From Odoribacter sp. (GTDB lineage Bacteria > Bacteroidota > Bacteroidia > Bacteroidales > Muribaculaceae): DNA of 64,000 nt. This document shows, piece by piece, positions 4,983-12,281 of the stretch; position 1 is the stretch's first letter, and each line of letters starts with the position of its first letter. Location: positions 23,028 to 87,027 of the forward strand of contig JAMPHZ010000007.1 of assembly GCA_023663145.1 (NCBI GenBank). Direction: 5' to 3'. The translations under genes were made by a program, and so were the position numbers. Below the pieces are notes generated by a model. That model searched no databases. It was not told the origin of the DNA and worked only from the letters and a program-made list of their open reading frames with translations.

Positions 4983-6746
4983 ATGATTAAATCTTATTTC
5001 AAAGTCGGCGCGGCACTGTTATGCTTGCCACTGCTCGCCGGATGTGTCAACGACGATTATGATTTGTCGGATATTGACACTACTACCCGCATCACAATCA
5101 ATGACCTTACAATTCCGGTTAATATTGATGTAGTGACATTGGGTGACATTATCACATTTGATGAAGATTCCAAAATTCAGCCTGTTACGATCAATGGTCG
5201 TGAATTCTACGCTCTGCGTGAAAGCGGTAGTTTCGAGTCTGATGCCATTGAGATTGATAAGGTGACGGCTCCGGCTCCCACACTTTCTCCAACCACTGCT
5301 CATCTTGACCGAATGCCCTTGCCTCCGGTTGACATTCCCGGCGAAGTCACCATTAGTTACGAAATCACTCCTATGGGCAATGGTATAGTATATAATGCCG
5401 GCCATGTTGACGATGCTATTGTTGACCTTGAATTTATCAAGGCTTCTATGTCGCTTTCCATTCAGCTTGAGACACTTAATATACCCGGCGGCGTAAAGCG
5501 GGCCGTATTCACCGATGTTGTGATTCAATTACCCAAGGGACTCGACGCCGATCCTGAAGAGGGCTCTTATGATCCCGTTTCAGGCTTATGGAGCATTGCC
5601 CGTCATGAAGCCTCAGGCCAGTCAACACGTCTCATCATCAATGCTTCAGGTGTAGACTTCAAACAGGCCGGCGCCTCTATCCGTCCCGACCATACTTTCT
5701 ATTATGAAGGCGACTTCCGCATACTTCAAGGAGCCGTAACAATTGTGCCGGAGCCTACAACAATATCGCAATTACCTGCTTCGCTTGAGTTCCGTGCAAG
5801 CTATAGCGTGAGCGATATGGTTGCCACAAGCTTCACAGGTATGGTAAATTATAAGCTCGATGGCCTTGATATTGATCCGGTAAGCCTCAGTGATATTCCT
5901 GATTTCTTGTCGGGTGAGGGCACCAACATACGTTTGGCTAACCCGCAGATCTATCTGCAGGTCAACAATCCGGTTGCAGATGACAATCTTGATTGTTCGA
6001 CAGGTATTACACTCACAGCCATGCGCGACGGTGGCCATTCGCTAAGCTTTTCGCCTGATAACGGAGCGTTTACAATCGGACACAATGCTGCTGATAATAA
6101 ATACAACTTTGTACTTGCTCCCGATCTTGACAACCTAACCACTCCGGATGAATACGTTGCCGGTCTTGAATTCGTTGAGTTCTCAACTCTTACAGATCTG
6201 CTTGCCACTCCTGAGAACTATTCTGTATCGGGTCTGCCAACAAGCATAGGCATCCGTCTTGATGATCCGCAGATACCTCTGTCACGCGTGTCTGATTTTG
6301 CTTTAGGTCGCCAACTACCTGCGGTACATGGTTCATATGAACTGATCGCACCTCTGGCTCTTGAAGAAGGCTCACTAATTATATATACCGATACGCAGGA
6401 CGGTTGGAATGACGAAGACGTCGACGCTATCACAGTGTCAAAACTGTCACTTACTTTCACCGCTACCAACAGCACACCAATCAGTGCAGAGCTTTACGCA
6501 TGGCCCATTGATGTCAATGGTAACCGCATCAAGGGGGTTGAAATAAAGAGCTCGACTCTGCCGGCCAACTCGGAAGACGTACCCGTAACCATCGAGCTCA
6601 CAGGTGAAGTGAAGCATCTCGACGGCGTAGTGTTCGAGGCCCGCGTGAGTGGCAGCAAGGACAGCTCATCACTCACACCTGCGCAATCGATCACACTGCG
6701 CAATGTACGTGCCAATGTTTCCGGTTATTACGAAAAAGAATTCTAA
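4983..6746 (+). CDS. Surface lipoprotein (DUF4621-like), beta-rich
   Basis: Lipobox LLAG-C followed by acidic VNDDYDLSD, resembling the Bacteroidetes lipoprotein export signal. The DUF name is from recall only. Confidence 0.65.
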   Translation: MIKSYFKVGAALLCLPLLAGCVNDDYDLSDIDTTTRITINDLTIPVNIDVVTLGDIITFDEDSKIQPVTINGREFYALRESGSFESDAIEIDKVTAPAPTLSPTTAHLDRMPLPPVDIPGEVTISYEITPMGNGIVYNAGHVDDAIVDLEFIKASMSLSIQLETLNIPGGVKRAVFTDVVIQLPKGLDADPEEGSYDPVSGLWSIARHEASGQSTRLIINASGVDFKQAGASIRPDHTFYYEGDFRILQGAVTIVPEPTTISQLPASLEFRASYSVSDMVATSFTGMVNYKLDGLDIDPVSLSDIPDFLSGEGTNIRLANPQIYLQVNNPVADDNLDCSTGITLTAMRDGGHSLSFSPDNGAFTIGHNAADNKYNFVLAPDLDNLTTPDEYVAGLEFVEFSTLTDLLATPENYSVSGLPTSIGIRLDDPQIPLSRVSDFALGRQLPAVHGSYELIAPLALEEGSLIIYTDTQDGWNDEDVDAITVSKLSLTFTATNSTPISAELYAWPIDVNGNRIKGVEIKSSTLPANSEDVPVTIELTGEVKHLDGVVFEARVSGSKDSSSLTPAQSITLRNVRANVSGYYEKEF

Positions 6747-6761
6747 GCAATCTGCATCTAA

Positions 6762-8150
6762 TTGAAAATGAAAACATTCTTTAAATATATGTTGGCTGTG
6801 GCCGCTGCCGGCGCCACAGCTGCCGGGGCAATAGCCCAGACCACCAATTCGGGCTATTTCCTTGAAAATTACAACTACCGTTATCAGATGAATCCTGCGT
6901 TGGGCAACAGTGATAATTTCGTATCAATGCCTGCGCTCGGTGACCTCAATATAGCCATGCGGGGTAACCTTCACCTCTCAAGTGTTCTTTTCAACCGCAA
7001 TGGCCGCACGGTGCTCTTCACGAATCCCAATGTGTCAGTTGAGGAAGCTCTCAAAGGTATTCATGACCGCAACCGTCTTGGTGCTAATATAAAACTCAAT
7101 ATACTGAGCGCAGGTTTCAAGGCGTGGGGCGGCTATAACACTGTGTCTATTAACGCTGCGGCAAATATAAATGCCACATTGCCCGGGGCTTTCTTCTCAT
7201 TGGCTAAAGAAGGAATATCCAACAAGACTTATGATATAACCGACCTGCGTGCCAGCGCCATGGGTTACGGTGAGTTCGCATTGGGTCATTCTCGTGACAT
7301 AACTCAGGTGCCGGGTCTGCGTGTAGGTGCTACAGTTAAGTTCCTGGTGGGTGTTGCCAATGTCGATGCTTACTTCAACAACGCACATCTTGTACTTGGT
7401 GAAGACTCATGGACTGCCACTACCAACGCCGATATCTATGCCAATGTCGGCGGTTTCCAGTTTGATCACGAGATCAATGACAATACAGGTCGTGAATATG
7501 TGTCGGGTGCTAACCTTGACGGCGACGGTTCGATCGGTCCCAATGGTTTCGGTGTCGCTTTTGACCTTGGTGCGACTTACAAGTGGAGTGATTTTACATT
7601 CTCGCTTGCCGCAACTGATCTTGGCTTCATTAACTTCAGTGACACTCACTATGCCACCACTAACGGTGACCAGACGATCAATACCGACTCATATATCTTC
7701 AGTGCAAATGGCGATGCCTCCAATTCATTTGAGAATGAGTGGGATAAACTCAAGGGCGACCTTGACAAACTTTACCAGATGCAGGATCACGGCAACATAG
7801 GATCGCGATCGCGCAATCTTGCTGCCACTCTTAACGTAGGTGTTGAATATGAGTTCCCGCTCTATCGCAAGTTGCACTTCGGTGTGCTGAGCTCAACCCG
7901 GTTTGCTGGTAAATATACATGGACAGAGGCCCGTATCTCAGCCAATGTAAACCCTGTGAAATGTTTCTCGGCTGATGTGAATGTGGCATTCGGCACTTAT
8001 GGCGTCGGATTCGGTTGGTTGCTTAACCTTCACACCAAGGGTTTCAATCTCTTCCTTGGCATGGATCATACTCTTGGCGAGGTGAGCAAGCAGTTTGTGC
8101 CGCTCAACTCGAATGCTTCGGTTAATTTTGGTATAAACTTCCCGTTTTAA
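6762..8150 (+). CDS. Outer-membrane beta-barrel protein, DUF5723 family
   Basis: Signal peptide, N-terminal NYRYQMNPA, alternating beta-strands, C-terminal aromatic (GINFPF). Confidence 0.75.
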   Translation: MKMKTFFKYMLAVAAAGATAAGAIAQTTNSGYFLENYNYRYQMNPALGNSDNFVSMPALGDLNIAMRGNLHLSSVLFNRNGRTVLFTNPNVSVEEALKGIHDRNRLGANIKLNILSAGFKAWGGYNTVSINAAANINATLPGAFFSLAKEGISNKTYDITDLRASAMGYGEFALGHSRDITQVPGLRVGATVKFLVGVANVDAYFNNAHLVLGEDSWTATTNADIYANVGGFQFDHEINDNTGREYVSGANLDGDGSIGPNGFGVAFDLGATYKWSDFTFSLAATDLGFINFSDTHYATTNGDQTINTDSYIFSANGDASNSFENEWDKLKGDLDKLYQMQDHGNIGSRSRNLAATLNVGVEYEFPLYRKLHFGVLSSTRFAGKYTWTEARISANVNPVKCFSADVNVAFGTYGVGFGWLLNLHTKGFNLFLGMDHTLGEVSKQFVPLNSNASVNFGINFPF

Positions 8151-8167
8151 GATATTACTGAAATAAA

Positions 8168-8213
8168 ATTGACAGATAGGGTCCGGCCACCTGGCCGGAC
8201 CCTATCTGTCAAT
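8168..8213. terminator. 22-bp perfect inverted repeat with 2-nt loop downstream of the DUF5723 gene
   Basis: ATTGACAGATAGGGTCCGGCCA-CC-TGGCCGGACCCTATCTGTCAAT. Confidence 0.65.
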
Positions 8214-8298
8214 ACCTATCTTTTTATGATATAAATGTTCAAGAACCGATTTTTTAGTTAAAATGCAGATAACTGTTTGAAAATACATACCTAAATGC

Positions 8299-8623
8299 TA
8301 ACTTTGCATTCAAATTCATCCTGATTACCCTCCGCCGAGGGATGTGAGGGTGGGTTCAATTTATTGGATAAGCGTTTACAGCGCTCATTTTCGACACTCG
8401 GAAACTTCGCAACTTTCATAGAATCAGTCGGAAACGAAGCATGCAGTAGATGTCTTGCGGATATGTACATTATCATGTGTGTACGCTCCCGTTTGTGGGG
8501 CGCTCACATTGTATATACATATCGGCGTGAGGCTCTTCATGTTTGCTCGTTCTACTGATTCGGGCAATGCGAAGGCCTCTGAGTGTGAGAACGGGCAACA
8601 GTAGTGATTCTCACGCTTTTTTT
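8299..8623 (+). promoter_or_regulatory. Promoter plus long structured 5' leader ending in an intrinsic terminator (candidate attenuator/RNA switch) upstream of the LRR gene
   Basis: TAACTTTG at 8299-8306; multiple long-range complementary blocks; GTGTGAGAA/TTCTCACGC stem plus T7 at 8617-8623, 85 nt before the ATG at 8709. Confidence 0.6.
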
Positions 8624-8708
8624 ATGCAGATACATATTCCTTACTGCCTTAGAGAATCGGGTGGTTATCAAAATATTGATATTTTTAACCAATCAATTCT
8701 ATAAGTAA

Positions 8709-11700
8709 ATGAAGAAAATTTTATGTTTATTCCTATCATCGGCCGTAGCTGTCACTGCGAGTGCCCTTGATGTTGGCGAGTGGATAACCTATGACGGCAT
8801 GGGATTTATGATAACATCCATGGCTGACAAGGAAGTGGAGTTTATGCATTACGAAGGGTCGTCGACAACACTCGAGATTCCATCGACATGGACTGTTCCT
8901 GAAGGATATGGCGAAGCAAGTGGCGAAGTTTTTACAGTGACATCGGTCGGCCCATTTGACGGACACAGTGTAAATCCTAAGATCGTAATTGTGCCTGCTA
9001 CAGTTAAAACTATAAAGAGCGGCACGTTCTCATACGGCGGACTTGAAGAAGTGACATTCTTAGGAAATGTAGAGACACTGGATCGCGAGGCATTAGCCTA
9101 TTCCACGGTTTCGAAGATCACATTTAACGGATATGTGGCAAATGTAGGTGCCGGTTGCTTCTCCTATAGTAGGAATCTGCCTTCTACTTTTGAATTCCCT
9201 GCAGGCCTCAAGTCAATTGATTGCACGGCTTTCACACAATCAGGGATTACAAAAATAACCCTGCCTCAGTCACTTGAGACAGTGACTGTGCCGGAAGGAT
9301 ATCCATCTCAGGAAAAAATGGATGTAACATTCCGTGATGTAGAGGAGATCACTTTTAATGTTGACAATCTGGAAGATTGGTGTTCTACTCCGATCAAGGG
9401 TTACATGGTCGGCGATAGGCAGAGGGTCAATATTTTGTATCGTGAGCGCCCGATAACAAGTCTTACAGTGCCGATGGGTGTTGAGAAACTTAAACCTTAT
9501 GCATTTGCCAGTGTAGCTCTCGGAAACGTAAGCTTGCCCGACGGACTGAAGGAAATCGGAGCAGGTGCATTCATGAACACAGGTATCACATCTATTACTT
9601 TACCCGAAGGCACAACTGTAATAGGTGATGAGGCTTTTGCATATAACGGAGATCTGGCATCAATCAACTGGCCTGCGTCACTTACATCAATCGGTGCATC
9701 CGCTTTCCAGTCTGATAAGGCTTTGTCAACATTAATTGCCGGTCCGGCTCTTGAAGAAATCGGAGCAAAGGCCTTCCTTGACTGCACCGACCTTGAAAAT
9801 GTGACTCTTACAGCCGTTAAGAAGATAGGTGATGAGGCATTCTCAAACTGTCCCCGCATCAAAGAACTTACATTCCCTGACTGTCTTGAGGAGATCGGTG
9901 CGGGAGCGTTCGGCTTCACCAATCTTACAGAACTGAAATTCGGCCCATCTCTGCGTAAGATAGGGGATCTGGCGTTTTATAACTTTCCACCGACTCAATG
10001 GGATTGGGATTCGGAAGAATATAGTAACAAGGGCGCTTCGGTAACTTTTTCCGAGGGCCTCGAGGAGATCGGGCGTGAAGCCTTCAGTGGATTTGCGCTG
10101 CGTGAACTGCGTCTTCCGTCAACATTGAAAACTGTAGGGCATAGCGCATTCAACGGTGCTCTTTTCACTTCGGTAGATATTCCGGCGGCAATGACAAGCA
10201 TCGGTTCGGGAATGTTCGTAGGTTGCTACCGTCTCACTACCGTGAATTTCCATGATAATGTTGAGGAAATTGGTGATGAAGCTTTTATGTACGATGCAAA
10301 TATAACAAGTGTGGCACTGCCGGCTTCTCTCAAAAAGATTGGCAGTAAATCATTTATGGGTACTGGCGTAGTAAATGCATATATCCTTGATGCTGTTACA
10401 TCAATTGGCGCGAATGCTTTCGGTTCCACAAATTCCGGCGAACCGGGTCCGCTTCGTTATATGAAACTCGGTAGCGGAATAACCTCACTTCCCAATCCTG
10501 TAGCTGAATCATGTGATGTTGTGGAAATGGCCTCGTCAACAGCTCCAGTCCTTGGAACTGAACGTTTGGGCTTCACTCCCAAGCTTGTTATTGTGCCGGC
10601 AGGTGCGTTGGCTAACTATCAGGCCAACAATCGTTGGAAAGATTACAACATTGCTGAGGTAAATGGTAAAATAGCCTCAGTATATGTTTCCACTCCCGGC
10701 ACACTTGCCACCGAGATCCGTCTGCAATCAAGCCTTATGCCCGCTCAGGTTACCAATCTGATTGTGGAAGGCGAACTTAACAATGATGACTTTGCCATTA
10801 TCCGCAGTAACATGACTTCGTGTTATGATATAGACTTGTCGCGCGTGACTAACACTACCCTTCCCGAAGCTGTATTTGCCGGAAAGACAATCATGCTTAA
10901 CCTTACACTTCCCACAGGTCTCACTTCTATTCCGGCCGGTGCTTTCAAGGATTGCGCTGTGATGCACCTTGCCGGCATTCCTGAAGGTGTCACCTCAATA
11001 GGCAAAGAGGCTTTCAGCGGATGTGTCAGCATGGACAATGATCTTGTAATTCCTGCGGCTGTAACTTCTATAGCTGATGAGGCATTCGCCGGATGTACCA
11101 GTCTCGCGTCGGTTGATATGAGTGCATGTGGCACACTTGAGCTTGGCAATTCAGTTTTCAATGGCTGCAACAGCCTCGCAACAGTGAAGATGCCGGCTAC
11201 CGCTACAATGATTCCTGAGTATATGTTTGCTAACTCAGGTGTCAGCGCTATAGAGTTACCCGTATCTGTCAAGAATATCAGCGAATGTGCTTTCTCCGGC
11301 ACTGCATCGCTTAAGAATATCGTTCTACCCGAAGGTCTTGAGACCATAGGAGCCTGGGCATTCTCAGGTTCAGGCCTCACCTCACTGAGTGTACCCGGGT
11401 CGGTTAAAGAAATTGGCGAGGCCGCTTTTGAACGCAGCGCGATCGTTTATGCTAACTTTGACAATGGACTCGAAAGCCTGCCGGCATCGGTTCTCGGCAA
11501 CTGTCCCGCTCTGTTGGTCGTGAATCTGCCCGCCACACTCAAGAATGTAGGTGAAGCTTCACTTAACAGTGCAGGTCTGAGCGCTATAAACTCACCTTCT
11601 GTTGAACCTGCTGCGACACAAGGTGCACCATTTGCTTCGGTTGACAACATGACATGTGCCCTTTCGATTCCCAAACCCTCATTCTCCAAATATCTGCTTG

Positions 11701-12281
11701 CAGAATTCTGGGGTTCATTTGTCGGTATACGTAACTGCATTGATGTTACAATACCTGAAGGTACTGATGTTACCTATATGGATGAGGAGGACTATCAGGA
11801 ACTTCTTGAAGATATGGAACAGGAAGAGCAAGAACCTGAAGTTGAACCCGCTGTGAATACCCGTGCCCATGCAATGCGTGTAATGCGTAAAGCAGGTTCG
11901 GTTAATATACGCCGTGGTTACGGAAAACTGTTCAATGGCGCATCACTGTTCCGTGACGGTGGCTCAAAAACCCGGTTCTTCCTTGAGATTGACCCGTCGG
12001 TGACTGAATATACAGTTACTTTCAACGGTCGTGATGTAACCAATAGCATTGACAAGAGCAACAACTCACTCCTGATCGATGGTATTACAGCCGATTCACA
12101 ACTTGTAATAACAAGCAAGGGCTTTCATGGTATACATGATATAGAAGCTATAGATCTGGCTGCACCCATGACAGTTTACAATCTGCAAGGCGTGCAGGTG
12201 GCTACTTCTATTGAAAATCTTCCGGCAGGTATGTATATAGTAAACCAAGCCGGTACTACCCGTAAGATTACTGTGAAATAA
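8709..12281 (+). CDS. BspA-type leucine-rich-repeat (LRR_5) surface protein with C-terminal T9SS-type sorting signal
   Basis: Many LxxLxLPxxLxxIGxxAF repeats; signal peptide; C-terminus VYNLQGVQV...LPAGMYIV...RKITVK. Confidence 0.88.
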   Translation: MKKILCLFLSSAVAVTASALDVGEWITYDGMGFMITSMADKEVEFMHYEGSSTTLEIPSTWTVPEGYGEASGEVFTVTSVGPFDGHSVNPKIVIVPATVKTIKSGTFSYGGLEEVTFLGNVETLDREALAYSTVSKITFNGYVANVGAGCFSYSRNLPSTFEFPAGLKSIDCTAFTQSGITKITLPQSLETVTVPEGYPSQEKMDVTFRDVEEITFNVDNLEDWCSTPIKGYMVGDRQRVNILYRERPITSLTVPMGVEKLKPYAFASVALGNVSLPDGLKEIGAGAFMNTGITSITLPEGTTVIGDEAFAYNGDLASINWPASLTSIGASAFQSDKALSTLIAGPALEEIGAKAFLDCTDLENVTLTAVKKIGDEAFSNCPRIKELTFPDCLEEIGAGAFGFTNLTELKFGPSLRKIGDLAFYNFPPTQWDWDSEEYSNKGASVTFSEGLEEIGREAFSGFALRELRLPSTLKTVGHSAFNGALFTSVDIPAAMTSIGSGMFVGCYRLTTVNFHDNVEEIGDEAFMYDANITSVALPASLKKIGSKSFMGTGVVNAYILDAVTSIGANAFGSTNSGEPGPLRYMKLGSGITSLPNPVAESCDVVEMASSTAPVLGTERLGFTPKLVIVPAGALANYQANNRWKDYNIAEVNGKIASVYVSTPGTLATEIRLQSSLMPAQVTNLIVEGELNNDDFAIIRSNMTSCYDIDLSRVTNTTLPEAVFAGKTIMLNLTLPTGLTSIPAGAFKDCAVMHLAGIPEGVTSIGKEAFSGCVSMDNDLVIPAAVTSIADEAFAGCTSLASVDMSACGTLELGNSVFNGCNSLATVKMPATATMIPEYMFANSGVSAIELPVSVKNISECAFSGTASLKNIVLPEGLETIGAWAFSGSGLTSLSVPGSVKEIGEAAFERSAIVYANFDNGLESLPASVLGNCPALLVVNLPATLKNVGEASLNSAGLSAINSPSVEPAATQGAPFASVDNMTCALSIPKPSFSKYLLAEFWGSFVGIRNCIDVTIPEGTDVTYMDEEDYQELLEDMEQEEQEPEVEPAVNTRAHAMRVMRKAGSVNIRRGYGKLFNGASLFRDGGSKTRFFLEIDPSVTEYTVTFNGRDVTNSIDKSNNSLLIDGITADSQLVITSKGFHGIHDIEAIDLAAPMTVYNLQGVQVATSIENLPAGMYIVNQAGTTRKITVK

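Follow-up and report, generated by a model that had tools for sequence, protein, structure and literature searches.

Transcription attenuators such as those of trp, his and pyrBI, PyrR- and T-box-controlled leaders and the expression platforms of riboswitches are promoter-proximal leaders, present in several copies per genome, in which a decision is taken during transcription and one shared strand pairs either upstream, as antiterminator, or downstream, as the terminator that runs into a U-tract. Bistable RNAs outside this group include the HIV-1 5' leader, where a long-distance-interaction rod competes with branched hairpins and the kissing loop of the dimerisation initiation site (DIS) can go on to an extended duplex, as well as the hok mRNA and the MS2 leader. 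Here we describe an RNA that shares the first plan, with a strand called Y in the shared role, from a 64,000-nt stretch of contig JAMPHZ010000007.1 of Odoribacter sp. (assembly GCA_023663145.1), referred to as the window; coordinates are positions in this stretch, the element lies on its + strand, and G000 is the window's own genome. An earlier note, made from these letters alone, had proposed at 8299-8623 a novel two-state RNA switch controlling the 1190-aa surface protein gene that follows. On balance we read window positions 8276-8623 as a self-contained promoter-leader module and as a two-state attenuator belonging to a Bacteroidales-wide leader family, whose members probably decide whether the varied surface-protein and accessory genes behind them are transcribed.

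The segments are ordered 5'-m1-B-X-(apical)-Y-B'-Z-U7; m1 is similar to Y, X is similar to Z, and B and B' are complementary. The parts of the window copy and its immediate surroundings are as follows.

8168-8189/8192-8213, + strand: putative terminator hairpin of the preceding 462-aa gene, 22 bp, arms 100% complementary
8276-8279 (-33 TTTG) and 8299-8306 (-7 TAACTTTG), + strand: Bacteroidetes-type promoter with a 19-nt spacer, called by sequence
8313-8356, + strand: variable 5' hairpin domain, not conserved family-wide and missing from short variants
8366-8395, + strand: segment m1, with an A-run and GCGT (8370-8375), the P0 hairpin (8372-8384) and m1b TTTTCGAC (8388-8395)
8394-8428, + strand: segment B, the 5' strands of P1 (8394-8402), P2 (8405-8411) and P3 (8421-8428)
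8401-8404/8414-8417, + strand: small hairpin hB within B, its loop being the P2 strand
8427-8459, + strand: segment X, partner of m1 in the nascent RNA (8427-8434 with 8388-8395) or of Y in the rod
8460-8523, + strand: apical hairpin domain, stem GATATGTA/TACATATC and tip CGCTCCC/GGGGCG, formed in both states; the short variants of about 170 nt do not have it
8525-8553, + strand: segment Y, the shared switch strand, with b GCGTGAG (8525-8531) and Y2 TGTTTGCTCGTTCT (8540-8553)
8554-8586, + strand: segment B', the 3' strands of P3 (8554-8561), P2 (8568-8574) and P1 (8578-8586)
8562-8565/8575-8578, + strand: small hairpin hB' within B'
8583-8591, + strand: local alternative 5' arm GTGTGAGAA
8587-8616, + strand: segment Z, with Z2 AGAACGGGCAACA (8588-8600) and c CTCACGC (8610-8616), the terminator 3' arm
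8617-8623, + strand: T7, the U-tract of the predicted intrinsic terminator, conserved in the alignments
8624-8708, + strand: 85-nt spacer to the start codon, with no TAnnTTTG box
8709-12281, + strand: downstream gene for a 1190-aa BspA-type leucine-rich repeat (LRR) surface protein with six LRR_5 stretches

The helices of both proposed folds lie where the earlier note had placed them. Fold A, the rod, pairs ACACTCGGA (8394-8402) with TCTGAGTGT (8578-8586), CTTCGCA (8405-8411) with TGCGAAG (8568-8574) and GAATCAGT (8421-8428) with ACTGATTC (8554-8561), and carries the apical stems GATATGTA (8460-8467) with TACATATC (8516-8523) and CGCTCCC (8484-8490) with GGGGCG (8497-8502). Fold B pairs GCGTGAG (8525-8531) with CTCACGC (8610-8616) and TGTTTGCTCGTTCT (8540-8553) with AGAACGGGCAACA (8588-8600). 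Segment Y can therefore pair with X in the rod, as antiterminator, or with Z in the terminator. Also present are the short GTGTGAGAA/TTCTCACGC stem suggested as a variant of Fold B, T7 (8617-8623), the promoter box TAACTTTG (8299-8306), the ATG at 8709, and CAGTAG at 8444 and 8599 with its complement CTACTG at 8552; the repeated CAGTAG is part of the mimicry between X and Z.

Both folds are maintained by compensatory changes. Across 46 distinct same-genus copies (alignment A2), the rod helices P1, P2 and P3 are 97%, 99.7% and 94% paired, with double changes at 8 of 9, 6 of 7 and 6 of 8 pairs, respectively, and in Fold B the helix 8525-8531/8610-8616 keeps 96.5% pairing with double changes at 2 pairs, and 8540-8553/8588-8600 keeps 88% with double changes at 7; none of the control shuffles and slid registers reaches these values. 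Pairing in the inner rod, between X (8430-8459) and Y (8525-8553), stands at about 85%. Five genus copies carry Y2 as GCTCTTTC instead of GCTCGTTC, and their Fold B partner in Z changes to GAAGAGC with the rod partner unchanged; the rod is supported by a change from GCAAAC to GGCAGC matched by one from GTTTGC to GCTGCC. In 24 short variants, aligned with MAFFT, arms a (local, CGCTCACGC), b (shared, GCGTGGGC) and c (terminator, CCCACGC followed by Us) change together, as in the three-way changes of L177 (GCTCACGA/TCGTGAGC/TTCACGA) and L179 (TTGCGG/CCGTGAGC/TTCACGG). Here 5 covarying pairs support a:b, which is 99% paired, 4 support b:c, which is 94% paired, and X:Y covaries as well. The covariation asked of the two folds is thus found in both. 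Because the rod helices P1-P3 and the Y:Z helices cross, and a 33-nt loop could not plausibly admit about 24 bp on steric grounds, we judge them to be mutually exclusive alternative states and not a simultaneous pseudoknot.

The proposed intrinsic terminator ahead of the gene also holds up as a sequence signal: the G+C-rich stem GCGTGAG/CTCACGC stands directly before T7, giving the signature of such a terminator, and it is kept in the long and the short copies alike (96.5% and 94%, as above) together with the U-tract.

The switch had been drawn with two elements, both of which are conserved, but this overlooked a third, consisting of the hairpin 8388-8395/8427-8434 and two small hairpins that may kiss. 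The block TTCTTGAC just 5' of P1 is the complement of GTCAAGAA, which closely follows the 5' strand of P3 (in the window copy, TTTTCGAC at 8388-8395 with GTCGGAAA at 8427-8434). This m1b:X1 pairing is 94.8% kept with 4 covarying pairs, and in most short variants compensation is visible by eye (ATTATTCTTG/CAAGAATAAT, TTATTCG/CGAATAA, GTTCTC/GAGAAC). Segment m1 has two possible partners, X in an early 5' hairpin or Z at the base of the rod. Within B, the hB stem GAAA/UUUC (8401-8404/8414-8417) is AU in 33 sequences and GC in 11 at alignment columns 40/54, the change from A-U to G-C falling in 11 sequences whose competing rod pair is merely G-U; the hB' stem GGGC/GCCU (8562-8565/8575-8578) alternates with GGGU/ACCU in short variants (UA 11, CG 8). 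The loops of hB and hB', each of 7 nt, are the two P2 strands, and P2 is 99.7-100% paired; P2 could therefore form as a loop-loop kiss in a branched state or as a helix in the rod. The one pointer to such a kissing step is the covariation of the hB and hB' stems, which suggests it.

The RNA 8310-8625 (+ strand) folds to -119.5 kcal/mol, against -87.7 +/- 5.9 kcal/mol for dinucleotide-shuffled sequences (z -5.4), none of 100 of which folds as well. The - strand of the element folds 20 kcal/mol more weakly than the + strand (z -5.7); the better fold of the + strand fits the conserved G-U pairs, which exist on that strand only.

Growing transcripts of the 46 long and 24 short copies were folded stepwise, with energies that ignore kissing, tertiary and protein contacts, and the two competing folds were recovered. 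In the window copy, the minimum free energy (MFE) structure of the transcript up to the end of the apical domain has the m1:X hairpin and the small hB stem; the addition of Y and then of B' switches it to X:Y with P3, P2 and P1, and c has no strong partner when the U-tract is reached. If the early hairpin is kept, the remainder forms the Y:Z terminator, at -103.3 versus -117.1 kcal/mol. The direct-path barrier (findpath), which is an upper bound only, is 13-27 kcal/mol in this copy while polymerase moves from Y to c. Among the long copies the early hairpin appears in 46/46 prefixes ending before Y, and the rod, with c mostly unpaired, in 46/46 full-length MFE structures; with the early hairpin kept, the b:c terminator forms in 38/46, and the median gap is 11.9 kcal/mol. 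Short copies behave alike (early hairpin 23/24, rod 23/24, trapped b:c terminator 20/24; median gap 14 kcal/mol).

The element stands as a 5' leader. A co-oriented open reading frame (ORF) beginning with ATG and of at least 70 codons follows in 131 of about 150 loci, a median of 46 nt past the end of the profile hidden Markov model (HMM), or 55 nt past the U-tract. Of 126 loci, 95 have the TAnnTTTG box at the 5' edge of the element and 2 have it within the spacer. A second promoter beyond 8625 would have made the gene independent of the leader; it was looked for in the window's 85-nt spacer, and no TAnnTTTG was present. Since spacers almost always lack a promoter box, the element is placed as the leader of the gene behind it. 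Upstream, the preceding gene (6762-8150) ends in the 22-bp hairpin 8168-8213, so the leader is its own transcription unit, insulated from what lies before it. That hairpin, with a 2-nt loop and A/T runs on either side, looks like a bidirectional terminator behind the 462-aa gene; miRNA-like Rfam matches to it at a permissive threshold are spurious. Transcription of the leader is predicted to start at about 8312-8314.

The proteins encoded behind the leaders are of many kinds, with an enrichment of envelope proteins. BspA-type LRR_5 proteins make up 22 of 127; others range from outer-membrane beta-barrels, many lipoproteins, and BACON and Big_2 proteins to kinases, DNA methylases, and LytTR and helix-turn-helix (HTH) proteins, and most have no Pfam match. 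A rough screen found signal-like N-termini in 88 of 131. The leader does stand ahead of the BspA-type gene, as had been claimed, but it is not specific to such genes, being a portable, multi-copy leader before varied ones. Of the label "BspA-like T9SS surface protein" (T9SS, type IX secretion system) the LRR_5/BspA part holds, whereas the T9SS part comes from a sub-threshold Por_Secre_tail match at the extreme C-terminus of the 1190-aa protein (E 0.11). In four loci from different genomes (L046, L049, L164 and L077) the leaders precede near-identical proteins of about 89-101 aa with a twin-arginine-type signal (MKQNKNEELQSRRxFFKKAAK...) and a Cys-rich C-terminus, which may be secreted peptide or bacteriocin-like precursors.

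The paralogous leaders that were looked for exist both in the window's own genome and in other Bacteroidales. G000 has exactly three copies, namely the window copy, one on contig C4 ahead of a 108-aa lipoprotein-like ORF, and one on contig C32 (L005 3380-3531) directly after two tandem tRNA genes with a GTT anticodon loop (Asn) and facing a convergent gene. All three share the promoter box, which aligns across them, a small GCGT..ACGC hairpin, the blocks AACTTCGCAACTT and GGGCAATGCGAAGGCCT, and the terminator with its U-run; they are only about 70% identical, and pairing is kept through compensatory changes. By blastn, 19 of 24 same-genus genomes carry 1-8 copies at about 70-80% identity. The variable 5' domain of the C4 paralog (L004 3040-3095, minus strand) and of many genus copies contains CGGGCAATGCGGG, a near-repeat of the B' block GGGCAATGCGAAGG that is absent from the window copy; this repeat could have arisen by partial duplication within the element, or could act to decoy the P2 strand.

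A scan of one genome per species for the conserved pattern gave at least 120 loci, and among the matches listed 111 of 120 pattern loci are full-length family members by nhmmer. These matches place members in Prevotella, Hallella, Bacteroides, Phocaeicola, Paraprevotella, Muribaculaceae, Barnesiella, Parabacteroides, Alistipes, Odoribacter, Paludibacteraceae and others; Hallella faecis CLA-AA-H145 (L134) and Bacteroides vicugnae A2-P53 (L111) are among the strains matched by the pattern. Full-length members also occur on contigs labelled Oribacterium, Firmicutes, Staphylococcus and Lachnospira (L070, L076, L094, L103, L169), most likely mis-binned Bacteroidales contigs in those metagenome-assembled genomes. 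A covariance model built in this analysis (R1), run on 301 Bacteroidales genomes of 209 genera, matches 59 genomes and 46 genera of the order, or about one fifth of genomes; in an even sample of the phylum there was one weak match outside the order. Two size classes exist: a long one, to which the window copy belongs, with a core of about 250 nt, and a short one of about 165-175 nt that lacks the apical domain and keeps the rest, and RNA length ranges over about 170-310 nt across the family.

The note's claim of novelty, with no known riboswitch recognised, is borne out by comparison with Rfam 15, in which no family matched at its gathering score in the 64-kb window or in six loci with short variants. 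A permissive scan of 8100-8760 up to E = 10 returned nothing relevant, and the only sub-threshold chance matches within 8360-8625 were mir-297 (18.8 of 90 bits) and snR43 (18.1 of 60 bits). Full-text literature searches returned no description of the leader family, and this leader RNA family of gut Bacteroidales is apparently undescribed.

The module is missing from the orthologous site, beside a conserved pair of genes for 587-aa and 462-aa proteins, in 16 same-genus genomes in which synteny is kept; it thus behaves as a portable cassette. No relative of it was found by blastn against plasmid and phage collections. Tandem leader-gene modules occur at L196 (G109:C66 401-570 and 1526-1695, about 1.1 kb apart) and L110 (41-307 and 4086-4439, about 4 kb apart), and their paralogous downstream lipoproteins suggest duplication of whole modules. 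The 587-aa and 462-aa genes (within 4983-8150 in the window) are syntenic in the 16 genomes (L203-L218), and neither has an NCBIfam match; in G022 (L206) the open frame of the 462-aa homologue extends to 919 aa, shows similarity to BspA-like LRR proteins and has no leader.

These results would fit the following mechanism. In the OFF state, the early 5' hairpin m1:X would be joined by the long Y:Z hairpin, ending in GCGTGAG/CTCACGC before the U-tract as an intrinsic terminator. The loops of the two would hold B and B', each folded as a small hairpin, and the 7-nt loops of these small hairpins could kiss through P2. In the ON state, B:B' (P1-P2-P3) and X:Y would build a rod of about 190-250 nt that leaves the terminator 3' arm with no strong partner, so that polymerase would read through into the gene. 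Since X is made before Y, the OFF path would be the kinetic default, with the rod as thermodynamic ground state by about 12-14 kcal/mol in the model energies. Expression would then be set by whatever lets the nascent RNA refold before polymerase reaches the U-tract. Elongation that is slow or interrupted by pauses is one candidate input; others are temperature, a helicase or chaperone acting on the RNA, and a protein or ligand with affinity for the kissing or rod form. The assignment of the ON state, the order in which the folds form and any effector are what we infer; the released leader may itself be a stable rod. More tentatively, the leader could be a portable, ligand-free "kinetic timer", spread by horizontal shuffling, in which a loop-loop kiss starts a strand-exchange switch and recently acquired genes for surface proteins, adhesins and other accessory functions come under one global input. 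That input would be the travel time of polymerase from Y to the U-tract, as set by nucleoside triphosphate (NTP) or (p)ppGpp status and pausing factors, or else how active an RNA chaperone or helicase is.

Several observations weigh against the attenuator as set out here. The copy on C32 has no downstream gene to regulate. A local hairpin of the 5' arm at the P1/Z junction with c is available in 33/46 copies (median -8 kcal/mol), and in the full-length MFE structure a weak 5'-3' closing helix, AAGCGU/ACGCUU, abuts the U-tract; because of these two, the rod state may still terminate in part, and its assignment as ON is not secure. The m1b:X1 pairing falls to 66% in the MAFFT alignment of short variants, a figure that reflects a gappy, badly aligned region. 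Pseudoknotted coexistence of some of the helices is also formally conceivable.

Of the other explanations, the one that survives best, while itself unlikely, is a riboswitch for a small molecule or second messenger, the internal loops between P1, P2 and P3 serving as aptamer and a ligand stabilising the rod or kissing form and thereby setting termination. It would suit a multi-copy element with a transcriptional expression platform and conserved asymmetric internal loops (GAAA/GCC and ACUUUC/GGGCAA), standing ahead of surface and adhesin-type genes as cyclic di-GMP (c-di-GMP) riboswitches do elsewhere. Nearly all conserved nucleotides are, however, used by the alternative helices (hB, hB', m1b:X1, Y:Z), so that a classical aptamer pocket is not evident, and the downstream genes share no pathway. 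A c-di-GMP riboswitch in particular was rejected. Of the 301 genomes of the order, only 20 have the GGDEF domain (PF00990), and of the 59 RNA-positive ones only 6, with 53 lacking it; none was found in G000, G044, G185 or G302; as most RNA-carrying genomes, G000 included, lack a GGDEF cyclase, the ligand cannot be c-di-GMP.

The note had itself offered a stand-alone non-coding RNA (ncRNA) of about 310 nt. Such an RNA would act in trans and be a stable rod closed by pairing of the 5' A-run with the 3' U-tail, and expression of the downstream gene would be independent of it or incidental. Its own promoter and conserved terminator, and a full-length MFE structure that joins the 5' and 3' ends into a single rod, would suit such an RNA, as would the copy on C32 after the tRNA-Asn genes with nothing but a convergent gene ahead. 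It fits orphan copies of that kind, but only those, and we hold it improbable for the family, given a co-oriented ORF in 131 of about 150 loci at a median of 55 nt and spacers that lack a promoter box in 124 of 126. Covariation of the terminator and of the early hairpin would be purposeless in a static rod, and P1, P2 and P3 vary freely while staying complementary, which argues against a fixed trans-RNA partner. 6S RNA, a single-copy housekeeping RNA of about 180-200 nt with a large central bubble that is not a leader, was rejected because the family has 3-8 copies per genome, no central bubble in its consensus, positions directly before ORFs and no match to 6S in Rfam. Retron msr-msd, bridge and omega RNAs were set aside on copy number, position before ORFs and the absence of neighbouring genes for a reverse transcriptase or transposase. 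Gene-specific pairing between a leader and the translation start region behind it showed no cognate advantage among 55 x 55 leader/start-region pairs (RNAduplex, p = 0.39) and was also discarded, and the analogy with C4-type repeats drew no support.

Control by a protein, whether a dedicated RNA-binding (anti)terminator protein, a NusG paralog or Nus factors acting at a boxA-type site, receives a similarly low probability. In long variants GCTCTTTCTTGAC follows right after a small hairpin, an arrangement that resembles the order of boxB and boxA, with the boxA core GCTCTTT, and NusG paralogs (UpxY) are reported to act on long 5' untranslated regions of surface-polysaccharide operons in Bacteroidales (PMC11685472). 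The motif nevertheless differs from the boxA-like GTTCTTTGAAGA in the rrn leader of G228, a genome that carries the family, is lost in short variants (GCTTATACTTG, GCTATTATTCTTG) and covaries as one arm of m1b:X1; an rrn-type boxA/Nus site was accordingly rejected, the motif being explained by pairing. The G228 leader was used for this comparison since two universal-primer motifs recognised no 16S rRNA gene in the G000 assembly (41 contigs, 99% complete), from which its rRNA operons are taken to be unassembled. No conserved neighbouring regulator gene was seen, the modules sitting between unrelated genes.

Very improbable is a repeat that acts as DNA (a miniature inverted-repeat transposable element (MITE), an invertible promoter segment or an attC-like site) with hairpin potential as a by-product, for although the element is a long inverted repeat that folds well on both strands (z -5.4 and -5.7), is multi-copy and, by its absence from the orthologous site in 16 same-genus genomes, is a portable unit, its paralogs are divergent (about 70% identical, with compensation, where a MITE would be near-identical), its pairing is not strand-symmetric, with conserved G-U pairs on the + strand only, its orientation to promoter, terminator and ORF is fixed, its alternative pairings covary, and blastn gave no plasmid or phage match.

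Few commensals have been studied as thoroughly as the Bacteroidales of gut and rumen, yet maps of their RNA-based regulation are sparse, and these bacteria lack Hfq, ProQ and CsrA (Segatella copri preprint). A large (170-310 nt), strongly covarying, multi-copy leader absent from Rfam would add a new class of riboregulator. It would also suggest that BspA-type adhesins, lipoproteins, outer-membrane proteins and further accessory genes, which shape interactions with host and phage, are under co-ordinated control. Conserved kinetic and thermodynamic folds in two size classes would also make a clean natural system for the study of co-transcriptional RNA folding.

Compared with the c-di-GMP-I and -II riboswitches, the family is alike in its many copies per genome before varied surface and adhesin genes and in a terminator platform, which those riboswitches often have, but it has no Rfam match and most carrier genomes have no GGDEF cyclase. 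Leaders of processive antitermination (rrn boxA/Nus, put, EAR, UpxY/LoaP) are likewise long and structured and stand before surface-related or horizontally acquired genes, and the long variants share the GCTCTTT core; in this family, however, the terminator lies inside the element and not downstream of it, and the boxA-like motif differs from the rrn element. The HIV-1 5' leader, hok and MS2 offer a likeness in a rod ground state set against an earlier-formed branched state, with complementary loops that could pass from kiss to extended duplex, but these RNAs control dimerisation, packaging or translation and not intrinsic termination, and have no sequence or ancestry in common with the family. 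From the classical attenuators the family departs in having no leader peptide, T-box or specifier sequence, known aptamer or Rfam match, and in the functionally unrelated genes it precedes. Its antiterminator is a 190-250-nt rod formed by long-range B:B' pairing, and an early m1:X hairpin sequesters the antiterminator strand first. The core reading, a novel promoter-proximal leader with two folds, is supported at the level of sequence, and by the folding models its mechanism class would be that of a transcription attenuator of new architecture.

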